Below are positions 29,990-31,258 of a DNA stretch of 64,000 nucleotides, piece after piece; position 1 is the stretch's first letter; each line of letters starts with the position of its first letter. This DNA comes from Escherichia phage vB_EcoM_VR26, in sequence record NC_028957.1, one strand, 5' to 3'. The translations under genes were made by a program, and so were the position numbers. Under the pieces are notes generated by a model, which saw nothing but the letters and a program-made list of their open reading frames with translations, ran no database searches and was not told the origin of the DNA.

Positions 29990-30223
29990 TTAGCAGCTAC
30001 TCGGATACCAGATTTTACCATCGGCACGAGCAACGAAGGTACGACCAGCTTCTTCACCATAACAAGAGCTGTTCAACCAGTCTTCAAGACGGACTTCGCC
30101 GTCATAATCATCAAGCTCAACACCAAAATCTTGAGCAGAAGCCATATCTTTTACTTTCTTATACAGTGCAGCCAGTTCAAGGGCGGCTTTTTCTAATTCA
30201 GCATGTTCAACAGCAGTAGTCAT
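29990..30223 (-). CDS. tandem small-protein family member 5 (77 aa, C-terminal WYPSSC)
   Basis: Paralog of the next four ORFs; internal WLNSSC and terminal WYPSSC. Confidence 0.55.
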   Translation of the reverse strand: MTTAVEHAELEKAALELAALYKKVKDMASAQDFGVELDDYDGEVRLEDWLNSSCYGEEAGRTFVARADGKIWYPSSC

Positions 30224-30232
30224 TTTATCACC

Positions 30233-30460
30233 TTAGCAAGACATAGAGGAGTTAAACCAGAAACCTTTACCATCTGGGATACCGTAATCACCACGAATCC
30301 AGTCATACTCTTCGTATTCTGGACAACCCGCGGGAATATATCGTTGAAGACTGTCAGCATATACATGAAAGTATTCACCAGTTTTATCGGCCAGTTGTTC
30401 ACCTTCACAGATTAGTGCACGGATTTGGTCTTCAATTTCTTTAACAGTTTTAGCAGTCAT
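30233..30460 (-). CDS. tandem small-protein family member 4 (75 aa, C-terminal WFNSSMSC)
   Basis: Shares 3' nucleotide repeat and C-terminal motif with neighbours. Confidence 0.55.
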   Translation of the reverse strand: MTAKTVKEIEDQIRALICEGEQLADKTGEYFHVYADSLQRYIPAGCPEYEEYDWIRGDYGIPDGKGFWFNSSMSC

Positions 30461-30469
30461 TTTATTTCC

Positions 30470-30667
30470 TTAGCATTCGTAAGAGGAGGACACCCAAGAG
30501 GTACCACTAATAGTAATACAGCCATTATAAAGCGTGATATGTCGTTCTAGGTCACGCTGACCATCAATATAGATATCAGCTTCTTCACGTTCTTCTTTAC
30601 AAATCTGGATAACGTTTTCAATAGCTGCCGCGGCAGTACGGATTGCACAATCTAATTCACGAGACAT
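30470..30667 (-). CDS. tandem small-protein family member 3 (65 aa, C-terminal WVSSSYEC)
   Basis: Shares 3' nucleotide repeat and C-terminal motif with neighbours. Confidence 0.55.
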   Translation of the reverse strand: MSRELDCAIRTAAAAIENVIQICKEEREEADIYIDGQRDLERHITLYNGCITISGTSWVSSSYEC

Positions 30668-30676
30668 AATAGTTCC

Positions 30677-30958
30677 TTAACATTCAGAAGAGGAGGACAC
30701 CCAACCGCCTTTTTCCAGGCTGGTAGTGTAATCATGTTGGTTTACAATAGCCCATTCAGGATGACCATGTTCTTCCCAATGAGCAAGGTCAGCTTTCAGG
30801 GCGCCAGGAGAATAATAGTCACCGCCCATACCGCGAGCAGGGTATATATTAAAATGAGTCTCATATTTGTCTGCAATTTCCTCGGCACGACGAATAGCTT
30901 TATGGATGTCATTTACTGCGTTAGCCAGTTCTTTATTTTTACGGTAATCATTCATCAT
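30677..30958 (-). CDS. tandem small-protein family member 2 (93 aa, C-terminal WVSSSSEC)
   Basis: Shares EEIADKY segment with member 1 and 3' repeat with all. Confidence 0.55.
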   Translation of the reverse strand: MMNDYRKNKELANAVNDIHKAIRRAEEIADKYETHFNIYPARGMGGDYYSPGALKADLAHWEEHGHPEWAIVNQHDYTTSLEKGGWVSSSSEC

Positions 30959-30967
30959 AGCGTTTCC

Positions 30968-31258
30968 TTAGCACATTGCCGAAGAGGAGACCCAAGCACC
31001 AACTGTAACGACACCGTTTTCAACTTCACCGCCGCTGTTTTCAATTTCATCTTTAAACCACTGGGAGCATTCATAACCGACAGGATAATATGTACGGCCC
31101 GAACCATAATCACCGGTACCAAATTGGATACCATATTCATCTGCGATTTCTTCACAGTGTTTTTCAATTTCAGAGGTCTTATTTAGAAGAGAATAGATAG
31201 CTTTTTCTGCAGATTTCTCATCATAATACTTGGGGATAGCAATTTCAATTTTATTCAT
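30968..31258 (-). CDS. tandem small-protein family member 1 (96 aa, C-terminal WVSSSAMC)
   Basis: HCEEIADEYG segment; 3' repeat; SD TAAGGAATG embedded in upstream gene end. Confidence 0.55.
   Translation of the reverse strand: MNKIEIAIPKYYDEKSAEKAIYSLLNKTSEIEKHCEEIADEYGIQFGTGDYGSGRTYYPVGYECSQWFKDEIENSGGEVENGVVTVGAWVSSSAMC

Follow-up and report, generated by a model that had tools for sequence, protein, structure and literature searches.

Small cysteine-tailed phage proteins encoded in tandem beside a nucleotidyltransferase-like gene point to an undescribed two-part phage system

Several described systems bear comparison with the locus examined here. RlaP (PF10127), the RNA-ligase-associated Pol-beta nucleotidyltransferase of RNA-repair operons, is an RNA 3'-end repair nucleotidyltransferase (NTase) (PMC12776372; PMC7824862). 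Like the predicted DUF7277-DUF7275 enzyme described below, it is a Pol-beta-type NTase of about 300-340 aa with a helical C-terminal domain that large phages encode beside RNA ligases, Pnk and tRNA genes, and in one metagenome contig (L027) an RlaP gene lies between the DUF7275 gene and a gene for a cysteine-tailed protein, overlapping a member of the small-protein family. However, DUF7277-DUF7275 gives no PF10127 hit and has no BLAST similarity to T4 NrdC.11, and no small Cys-tailed partner proteins have been described for RlaP. In MNT-HEPN modules (type VII toxin-antitoxin MntA/HepT; kanamycin-nucleotidyltransferase-like NTase+HEPN fusions), a minimal Pol-beta NTase works on a partner protein by nucleotidylylation. 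The start of DUF7275 gives two weak hits to HEPN-type models, the RNase L KEN domain (E=0.0034) and PADLOC CARF_HEPN (E=0.017), but both are below threshold, the conserved R148 is not followed by a His at +4 to +6, as the R-x(4-6)-H motif would require, the small proteins are not HEPN-like and there is no evidence of toxicity.

In C-terminal sorting-signal and dedicated-enzyme pairs (LPXTG/sortase, PEP-CTERM/exosortase, GlyGly-CTERM/rhombosortase), several otherwise different proteins share a short C-terminal signature and are encoded next to one dedicated enzyme, as is the case here, where the two families co-occur and are absent together from T4. Those systems are membrane-associated, with signals that include a transmembrane helix, whereas the proteins studied here are cytoplasmic and acidic, the enzyme is NTase-like and no cleavage is known. 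Archease is a small acidic protein encoded with, and needed by, the RNA-repair ligase RtcB, but it shows no sequence or fold similarity to the present proteins, has no Cys tail and does not occur as paralogue arrays. Finally, lanthipeptide/AviCys precursors (EpiA with EpiD) share with these proteins a C-terminal Cys with Ser at -3 and an arrangement as tandem precursor-like genes, but the present proteins are, on the evidence of the model obtained for one of them, folded domains, and no modification enzymes are encoded nearby.

The locus lies in a 64,000-nucleotide stretch of Escherichia phage vB_EcoM_VR26 (NC_028957.1), hereafter the window, which is a VR7-like Gaprivervirus in which the genes of interest are annotated as hypothetical. 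A preliminary description made from the sequence alone had noted five tandem minus-strand paralogues at 29990-31258 with a shared 3' nucleotide repeat and C-terminal tail. Examination of the open reading frames confirmed this observation, and identified the following features.

30968-31258, minus strand: member 1, 96 aa, a canonical family member with helix ..CEEIADEYG, loop YGSGRTYYP and tail WVSSSAMC encoded at 30971-30994 (phrog_899 E=6e-23; family HMM E=6e-22; dN/dS 0.12).
30677-30958, minus strand: member 2, 93 aa, a canonical member with helix AEEIADKYE, loop RGMGGDYYSP and tail WVSSSSEC at 30680-30703 (phrog_899 E=3e-20; family HMM E=6e-25; dN/dS 0.28; found by tblastn in 280 phage records).
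30470-30667, minus strand: member 3, 65 aa, a shortened derivative with the helix and tail WVSSSYEC at 30473-30496 but without the Gly-rich/Tyr loop (phrog_4882 E=1e-36; dN/dS 0.05). The broad family HMM gives only E=0.19, and membership is supported by the tail, the array position and orthologues in Mosigvirus and Marfa at 52-54%.
30233-30460, minus strand: member 4, 75 aa, tail WFNSSMSC at 30236-30259, the most divergent between related phages (phrog_899 E=4e-15; family HMM E=2e-17; 53% aa identity to the dhaeg orthologue, dN/dS 0.52).
29990-30223, minus strand: member 5, 77 aa, tail WYPSSC, without the x-x spacer, at 29993-30010, and a second internal copy of the motif, WLNSSC, at about 30062-30079 (phrog_899 E=9e-10; family HMM E=0.0017; dN/dS 0.12; orthologues in Marfa at 71%, in Phapecoctavirus-like contigs at 38-48% and in ESCO13).
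30959-30967, minus strand: 9-nt spacer GGAAACGCT between members 1 and 2, with the Shine-Dalgarno sequence (TAAGGA) abutting the stop codon.
30668-30676, minus strand: 9-nt spacer GGAACTATT between members 2 and 3.
30461-30469, minus strand: 9-nt spacer GGAAATAAA between members 3 and 4.
30224-30232, minus strand: 9-nt spacer GGTGATAAA between members 4 and 5.
31255-31258, minus strand: ATGA overlap between the stop of the upstream gene e.3 and the start of member 1, so that the array continues the e.4-e.3 transcription unit.
29719-29886, minus strand: 55-aa ORF (VR7ORF137c, phrog_20278; dN/dS 0.02) between the array and the enzyme gene.
28740-29705, minus strand: 321-aa protein comprising DUF7277 (N-terminal, Pol-beta nucleotidyltransferase-like, G6-S7 ... 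D25-x-D27; PF23942 and PF23940 being the only Pfam hits of the protein, at E=4e-26 and 4e-74 for DUF7277 and DUF7275) and DUF7275 (C-terminal, extremely conserved), the conserved genomic partner of the array.

The five C-termini show that the true motif is W-x-x-S-S-(x-x)-C-stop, rather than the W-x-S-S-x-C initially proposed. Chance is excluded, since the pattern W..[ST][ST].{0,3}C.{0,4}$ hits 5 of 1026 six-frame ORFs in the window, all of them in the array, and 0 of 2388 in the whole T4 genome. All four internal junctions are TAA-GG(A/T)-N6-ATG, a 9-nt spacer with the Shine-Dalgarno sequence abutting the stop, a layout for translational coupling. The EEIAD(E/K)Y helix noted in members 1 and 2 is real, and corresponds to the family-wide EAExIADExG motif. 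The near-identity of the 3' ends had been overstated, as only members 2 and 3 are near-identical at the nucleotide level (24/27), whereas the other pairs score 10-18/27. All five genes are under purifying selection against phage dhaeg (dN/dS of 0.12, 0.28, 0.05, 0.52 and 0.12 for members 1 to 5), and are therefore real coding genes.

To place these proteins, we performed profile searches against several family libraries. Members 1, 2, 4 and 5 match phrog_899 and member 3 matches phrog_4882, both phage protein families of unknown function, whereas Pfam, NCBIfam and PADLOC scans of the five proteins and of ten diverse relatives returned no hit above the curated thresholds. The phage-restricted family comprises 229 clusters at 50% identity. 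All 145 aligned sequences (140 representatives plus the five window genes) carry the tail, defined as W-x-x-[ST]-[ST]-x(0-3)-C within 4 residues of the end; 137 end exactly at the Cys, which is the only Cys in 74. Gly often precedes the Trp, the Ser-Ser to Cys spacing can be 0 or 3 residues as well as 2, and the median pI is 4.46. The N-terminal amphipathic helix ending in EAExIADExG and the following YG(M/S)GG-(T/S)-Y-Y-P loop are both present in members 1 and 2, whereas member 4 has the helix and YIP only and members 3 and 5, the two with the weakest matches to the broad HMM, lack the loop. A scan of GTDB genomes identified only four MAG contigs, so the family has no cellular context that could inform function.

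AlphaFold modeling of member 1 with a 45-sequence alignment predicted a confident compact alpha/beta fold (pLDDT 92.4, pTM 0.79), in which the Trp of the tail lies in the last beta-strand and confidence falls to 79 over the last residues; a model of member 2 based on a shallow alignment was unusable (pLDDT 58.6). The predicted fold has no relative among solved structures, and a sequence-profile search of the PDB with the family matched only designed helical bundles, through the amphipathic helix. Scanning of the whole T4 genome with family HMMs confirmed that T4 has no counterpart: tk.1 scored E=0.014-0.056 through the helix only and lacks the tail, nrdC.1-nrdC.3 are not homologous, and NrdC.11 is not homologous to the 321-aa neighbor.

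The preliminary interpretation of the array as a diversifying cassette family involved in host interaction or anti-defence is only partly supported. The genes are indeed a tandem family of small paralogues with a shared C-terminal tail, but diversification is not supported. Besides the low dN/dS values, the same five genes occur in the same order in VR7, SP18 and dhaeg, and each member has far closer orthologues in other genera or families than among its own paralogues. Member 1 is 60% identical to its Mosigvirus ortholog and 39-43% to those of Aeromonas and Phapecoctavirus phages, and member 5 is 71% identical to Marfa and 48% to a Phapecoctavirus-like contig, whereas the best paralogue pair is 27% identical. 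Anti-defence is plausible only by neighborhood.

The preliminary description missed the strongest clue, which lies just outside the array: the DUF7277-DUF7275 gene 285 nt from member 5. In 19 of the 20 loci examined with a full-length (core-type) enzyme gene, spanning at least six phage lineages, tail-bearing genes lie within about 4 kb of one such gene. The pairing is seen in VR7, SP18, dhaeg, Mosigvirus, Marfa, Providencia PSTCR6, an Erwinia jumbo phage, Ralstonia RSP15, Otagovirus psageK4e, Aeromonas Aes012, Phapecoctavirus ESCO13, Acinetobacter Acj61 and Stenotrophomonas Ps15, as well as in five metagenome contigs and in three of the four MAG contigs, the fourth (L029) having only a weak, tail-less family hit. 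Surrounding genes differ between these lineages, so shared synteny does not explain the pairing, the genus-level distributions of the two families match, and T4 lacks both partners. In Phapecoctavirus-like contigs, up to six consecutive genes of 52-145 aa upstream of the enzyme gene end in the tail, some of them with bodies that the family HMM does not recognize.

Some observations count against this coupling. Distant DUF7275-only homologs in Streptomyces, Gordonia, Vibrio K408, Limnohabitans and DSS3 phages have no tail proteins nearby, and the enzyme fold therefore does not strictly need them. In the window, the 55-aa ORF and a promoter-like site separate the array from the enzyme gene, although hits in the promoter and terminator scan were not above shuffled expectation, and in SP18 and dhaeg three unrelated genes are inserted between the two. 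No fusion of the two families was seen among the 120 listed enzyme homologs, all of 299-345 aa.

Analysis of 127 homologs of the enzyme at 39-88% identity revealed that G6, S7, D25, D27, H128, R129, H174, D193, H194, D195, H198, C243 and C272 are kept. The hG[GS] ... D-x-D motif of Pol-beta nucleotidyltransferases is thus present (G6, S7, D25 and D27 in at least 97% of homologs), and this motif, together with more than 60 residues conserved in at least 97% of the homologs, implies catalytic activity, here inferred from sequence alone. An HD-phosphohydrolase reading of DUF7275 (H...HD...D) was considered, but no PF01966 signal appears. Recurrent neighbors of the module include tRNA genes, RNA ligases, Pnk, RlaP and NAD-salvage genes. 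Rnl2 is adjacent in RSP15, Rnl1 and Pnk are adjacent in the Erwinia phage, and tRNA genes lie nearby in other phages and in the window, where two tRNAs were the only Rfam matches. Such tRNA and RNA-repair neighbors occur, however, in only about 10 of 17 loci, and early accessory regions of large phages are crowded with such genes anyway.

Together, the analysis establishes that the five ORFs are genuine genes, that they belong to one family with an invariant tail and, for member 1, a confidently predicted fold, and that they are genomically linked to the DUF7277-DUF7275 gene, with T4 lacking both. The most likely interpretation, which we hold only tentatively, is that these co-translated genes encode ancient paralogues of a phage-restricted family of small, mostly acidic alpha/beta proteins, forming with the downstream enzyme gene a conserved module carried by many large virulent phages. 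In this view, the tail would be the handle through which the differently shaped bodies are recognized by the enzyme, with the small proteins acting as its substrates, cofactors or specificity subunits, and with the terminal Cys, the two Ser residues or the free carboxylate serving as acceptor or as ligand at a metal site; the module would act in RNA-end (tRNA) repair or modification, or in a related counter-defence. The physical or functional coupling, the catalytic activity, the role of the tail and the RNA-repair or counter-defence role are all inferences from genomic and sequence data, without direct evidence of interaction, the function remains unproven, and five to seven small proteins per single enzyme is unusual for a simple enzyme-substrate pair. 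A more speculative and rather unlikely possibility, which would be of considerable interest, is that W-x-x-S-S-x-x-C-COOH is a cytoplasmic recognition or acceptor tag read by a dedicated Pol-beta-type nucleotidyltransferase, which would covalently nucleotidylate a panel of small effector proteins, or link them to an RNA or DNA end, at the terminal Cys or Ser residues. This would constitute a phage-specific tag plus tagging enzyme system, conceptually like the pairing of sortase with its signal peptides, used to repair or re-programme tRNAs or to counter host immunity, and absent from T4 itself.

The partner enzyme has more than 2,600 database proteins (90%-identity clusters), and both families are common in large virulent phages of Enterobacteria, Aeromonas, Acinetobacter, Pseudomonas, Stenotrophomonas, Ralstonia and Erwinia, many of which are used or proposed for therapy. 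Neither family has a known function or a solved structure, and literature searches on the motif, phrog_899, DUF7275/DUF7277 and the corresponding genes and phages (RB69, VR7, JS98) found nothing relevant. What is new here is the linkage: a terminal cysteine motif shared by several differently shaped proteins, encoded in nearly all core-type loci examined beside one highly conserved nucleotidyltransferase-like enzyme, suggests unfamiliar protein chemistry or an unrecognized RNA-repair or counter-defence strategy, and would give function to a block of hypothetical genes that distinguishes RB69-, JS98- and VR7-type phages from T4.

Alternative explanations are less well supported. It is possible, though doubtful, that the proteins are independent host-takeover or anti-defence inhibitors, each binding a different host target with the terminal Cys plugging a metal or active site, and that adjacency to DUF7277-DUF7275 reflects only co-inheritance within an early accessory island. 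The proteins are small, acidic (pI about 4.4) and cytoplasmic, they lie in the early hyperplastic e.2-e.3 region, their bodies are diverged while the tail is kept, member 4 evolves fastest, and neighbors in other phages include known counter-defence genes (NAMPT/Prs, SIR2 and NUDIX). However, the adjacency persists across at least six lineages with different flanking genes, T4 lacks both partners together, most members are under strong purifying selection and have old orthologues, unlike fast-evolving arms-race inhibitors, and PADLOC, Pfam and PDB searches give no similarity to any known anti-defence protein. It is unlikely that the tail is instead a sorting, packaging or degradation signal shared by unrelated cargo proteins, such as a C-degron for a host protease or a signal for loading into the virion, with no direct part for the enzyme. 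The eight-residue signature is shared by bodies that are not all alignable and is almost always at the exact C-terminus, as terminal signals are, and the array lies in a region rich in internal-head-protein genes (ip7, ip10, ip6 and ip9), but the known T4 capsid-targeting signals are N-terminal, the Trp is predicted to lie inside the last beta-strand and not in a free peptide, and this reading does not explain the linkage to one enzyme gene.

Even less likely is that the proteins are RiPP-like precursors or scaffolds, with C-terminal Ser and Cys residues converted, for example, by a lanthionine or aminovinyl-cysteine-type Ser(-3)-Cys(0) crosslink and the product released as a small molecule. 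The tandem precursor-like genes, the conserved Cys- and Ser-containing terminus, the frequent Gly before the Trp and the Ser(-3) spacing, which is that of the epidermin AviCys ring, are compatible with this idea, but member 1 is a confidently predicted folded domain that does not resemble a leader-core peptide, no LanB/C/M/D, radical-SAM, YcaO or protease gene lies nearby in any of the loci, the conserved part is only eight residues, and the Ser-Ser to Cys spacing varies. Lastly, the possibility that the repeated 3' nucleotide block is itself the functional element, as a recombination or gene-conversion cassette boundary or an RNA motif, with an incidental peptide tail, is already largely refuted. 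A repeat search reported a 43-nt direct-repeat family at four junctions, and members 2 and 3 share, beyond the 24 of 27 nt in the tail plus stop, 11 of the 15 nt downstream. Nevertheless, there is no Rfam match, the tail is conserved as protein across 229 clusters in phages with unrelated DNA, copy number and order are stable in VR7, SP18 and dhaeg, and the repeat is explained by conserved codons plus standard TAAGGA ribosome-binding junctions. The invariant serines, moreover, use TCC/TCT in some copies and AGT AGC in member 5, so conservation is at the protein level.

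The region 29990-31258 of the window was confirmed to contain five consecutive minus-strand ORFs of 96, 93, 65, 75 and 77 aa, exactly as the preliminary description had reported, and its observation therefore holds. The predicted products (members 1 to 5) end in WVSSSAMC, WVSSSSEC, WVSSSYEC, WFNSSMSC and WYPSSC, defining a shared W-x-x-S-S-(x-x)-C-stop motif. The four internal junctions all follow the pattern TAA-GG(A/T)-N6-ATG, with a 9-nt spacer, and the stop codon of the upstream gene e.3 overlaps the start of member 1, a layout that fits translational coupling within one transcription unit. 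To determine whether the C-terminal tail could be a chance feature, we scanned six-frame ORFs with a loose regular expression for the motif. The expression matched 5 of 1026 ORFs in the window, all of them in the array, and none of 2388 ORFs in the complete T4 genome, indicating that the tail is not a chance feature. The claim that the last 30 nt of the genes are near-identical, in contrast, holds only for members 2 and 3 (24/27), whereas other pairs share 10-18 of 27 nt, and member 5 encodes the invariant serines with AGT AGC instead of TCC TCT. Conservation is therefore at the protein level, plus a standard ribosome-binding site, and no Rfam family matched the region. Two further elements were identified within or next to member 5:

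about 30062-30079, minus strand, inside member 5: a second, internal copy of the motif (W-L-N-S-S-C, residues 49-54), present in addition to the terminal WYPSSC and kept as ..SSCYGE.. in the orthologs from Marfa, ESCO13 and Phapecoctavirus-like contigs, which suggests an old C-terminal extension or internal duplication.
29969-29986, minus strand: a 7-bp inverted repeat, TATCACA-AGGA-TGTGATA, immediately after the stop codon of member 5 and followed by GGAGG, which could be an RNA stability or processing element between the array and the next genes.

The window is 98.4% identical to Escherichia phage vB_EcoM_VR7 (Gaprivervirus), in which the five genes correspond to VR7ORF138c-142c, all annotated as hypothetical and located between the e.2-side genes and e.3/e.4. 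In T4, e.2 is joined directly to e.3, and searches with family HMMs found no member anywhere in the T4 genome. Comparison with the orthologs of the Dhakavirus dhaeg yielded dN/dS values of 0.12, 0.28, 0.05, 0.52 and 0.12 for the five pairs, establishing that all five are protein-coding genes under purifying selection, with only member 4 relaxed.

Profile searches mapped four members to PHROG 899 and member 3 to PHROG 4882, both of unknown function, whereas searches against Pfam, NCBIfam and PADLOC returned no hits for these proteins or for diverse relatives. An exhaustive profile search identified 229 clusters at 50% identity, nearly all of them of 65-145 aa and matched through to their last residue. 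The family consensus comprises an N-terminal amphipathic helix ending in EAExIADExG, a YGMGG(T/S)YYP loop, an acidic variable linker and a terminal G-x-W-[VILQ]-[SAP]-S-S-x-x-C. All 145 aligned sequences (140 representatives plus the five window genes) have the tail; 142 present the two-residue spacer, 137 end exactly at Cys and in 74 this is the only Cys, with a median pI of 4.46. Members 1 and 2 are canonical, whereas members 3 and 5 have lost the Gly/Tyr loop and are only weakly recognized by the broad HMM.

Using a 45-sequence alignment, AlphaFold2 modeled member 1 with a pLDDT of 92.4 and a pTM of 0.79. The model is a compact alpha/beta domain composed of a long helix (14-42), a five- to six-stranded sheet and a short helix (66-74), with the Trp contained in the last strand (88-91) and lower confidence in the final residues. 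In the viral predicted-structure library, the model matched only uncharacterized homologs from RB69 (ORF139c), Aeromonas phages 31 and CC2, Yersinia TG1 and Acidovorax ACP17.

The interpretation put forward in the preliminary description was only partly supported: the genes are tandem paralogs without a T4 counterpart, but the proposal that they constitute a diversifying cassette family is not supported by these data. The same five genes occur in the same order in VR7, SP18 and dhaeg, and each member has much closer orthologs elsewhere than among its own paralogs. Member 1 is 60% identical to its Mosigvirus ortholog, 39% to that of Aeromonas Aes012 and 43% to that of Phapecoctavirus ESCO13, and member 5 is 71% identical to its ortholog in Klebsiella phage Marfa and 38-48% to those in Phapecoctavirus-like contigs, whereas the best paralog pair (members 1 and 2) is 27% identical. 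The paralogs are therefore ancient, and each is conserved.

Examination of the region beyond the array revealed linkage to a single predicted enzyme gene, which is in turn overlapped by a putative mobile element:

28740-29705, 285 nt downstream of member 5: a 321-aa ORF matching Pfam DUF7277 plus DUF7275 (E=4e-26 and 4e-74).
28093-28743, minus strand: an HNH homing-endonuclease-like ORF (phrog_374, E=2e-59) overlapping the end of the DUF7277-DUF7275 gene by 4 nt, present in VR7 but absent at this site in SP18 and dhaeg, so that it looks like a mobile insertion.

To assess whether this linkage extends to other phages, we examined loci identified through either partner. Starting from small-protein hits, a DUF7277-DUF7275 gene lay within 0.1-4 kb on the same strand in Mosigvirus APCEc01, Marfa, a 153-kb JGI contig, Ralstonia RSP15, Otagovirus psageK4e, an Erwinia jumbo phage and Providencia PSTCR6, where the gene is cut by the record end. 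Starting from enzyme hits, tail proteins (that is, small proteins bearing the C-terminal tail) lay adjacent in Aeromonas Aes012, Phapecoctavirus ESCO13, Acinetobacter Acj61 and Stenotrophomonas Ps15. Four further metagenome contigs showed the same arrangement, as did three of the four MAG contigs that were the only hits among 100,044 species genomes; the fourth (L029) had only a weak tail-less family hit (E=0.01). In all, the pairing is present in 19 of the 20 loci with a core-type (full-length) enzyme gene, from at least six lineages whose flanking genes differ, and T4 lacks both families. In Phapecoctavirus-like contigs, up to six consecutive genes of 52-145 aa upstream of the enzyme gene end in the tail, some of them with bodies that the family HMM does not recognize, and the tail therefore behaves as a modular signature. 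Conversely, five distant DUF7275-only homologs, from Streptomyces, Gordonia, Limnohabitans, Vibrio K408 and DSS3_PM1 phages, have no tail proteins. Three of these, in Streptomyces Wakanda, Limnohabitans DC31 and Vibrio K408 (loci L020 4594-4893, L022 4719-5066 and L023 4614-4979), are each followed instead by a different conserved gene of about 100-120 aa ending in ..K(M/T)ITV(Y/F)E, which may be an alternative partner.

Across 127 homologs of the DUF7277-DUF7275 protein (39-88% identity), G6, S7, D25 and D27 are conserved in at least 97% of sequences, matching the Pol-beta nucleotidyltransferase hG[GS]...DxD signature from which catalytic activity can be inferred. More than 60 further positions are conserved to the same degree, including H128, R129, H174, D193, H194, D195, H198, E240, E241, C243, E248 and C272. 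No sequence match was found in the PDB, and a profile search returned only a marginal hit to the RNase L KEN (HEPN-type) region (E=0.0034), with PADLOC yielding a weak CARF_HEPN hit to the same region (E=0.017); the HEPN R-x4-6-H motif is not present. The protein is not RlaP, as it has neither a PF10127 hit nor similarity to T4 NrdC.11.

The genes that recur in the vicinity of these loci fall into three groups. The first consists of tRNA genes, which are found in APCEc01, Marfa, Providencia and Ps15, as well as in the window:

35359-35514, minus strand: tRNA-Arg(tct) and tRNA-Met(cat), about 4.1 kb upstream of the array on the same strand.

The second group comprises RNA-repair genes, with Rnl1 and Pnk in the Erwinia phage, Rnl2 in RSP15 and RlaP in L027, an 11-kb metagenome contig. 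In L027 (2871-5345) the gene order is DUF7277-DUF7275, a 63-aa ORF, RlaP (PF10127) and a tail protein whose start overlaps the RlaP stop, constituting the tightest link of the module to RNA repair. RlaP is an RNA 3'-end repair nucleotidyltransferase named for its association with RNA ligases (PMC12776372), and it is common in large phages as a counter to host tRNA attack (PMC7824862). The RNA-repair association is, however, seen in only about 10 of 17 loci. The third group includes the NAD-related or phosphatase genes NAMPT, Prs, NUDIX, SIR2 and Metallophos. In five Phapecoctavirus-like loci (L003, L013, L025, L026 and L028), a conserved block runs from a Metallophos phosphatase through several tail proteins and DUF7277-DUF7275 to SIR2, and NAMPT, Prs and NUDIX lie beside the module in Aes012, Acj61, Ps15 and K408, suggesting a possible link to NAD metabolism or counter-defense.

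Together, these results establish a real, ancient paralog array of a phage-only family with a predicted new fold and a terminal Trp/Ser-Ser/Cys signature, genomically coupled to a conserved NTase-like enzyme gene. Beyond this, we tentatively infer, from sequence, a structure model and genomic context alone, that the tail is the handle by which the enzyme recognizes these proteins as substrates, cofactors or specificity subunits, and that the module would serve RNA-end repair or modification, or a related counter-defense. This remains the preferred reading, although it is far from secure. That the proteins act as independent anti-defense inhibitors is possible but less likely, and a role of the tail as a terminal sorting or degradation signal appears doubtful. 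RiPP-like precursors are improbable, since a folded domain argues against a leader-core precursor of this type, and a DNA-level repeat element is the least likely of these alternatives. An explanation not considered here also remains possible.

These genes have so far been catalogued as hypothetical, in PHROGs and DUFs of unknown function, and no characterized family, fold or system was found to match them. Literature searches identified no work on DUF7275 or DUF7277, and neither the tail signature nor its coupling to DUF7277-DUF7275 appears in the searchable literature. Several GenBank phage records (e.g. UPEC01, UPEC07, vB_YenM_P8, ESCO10 and EAWsc9) label these small genes as "tail completion protein", "major capsid protein", "sulfurtransferase", "helicase" or similar, which look like pipeline mis-annotations of the array.
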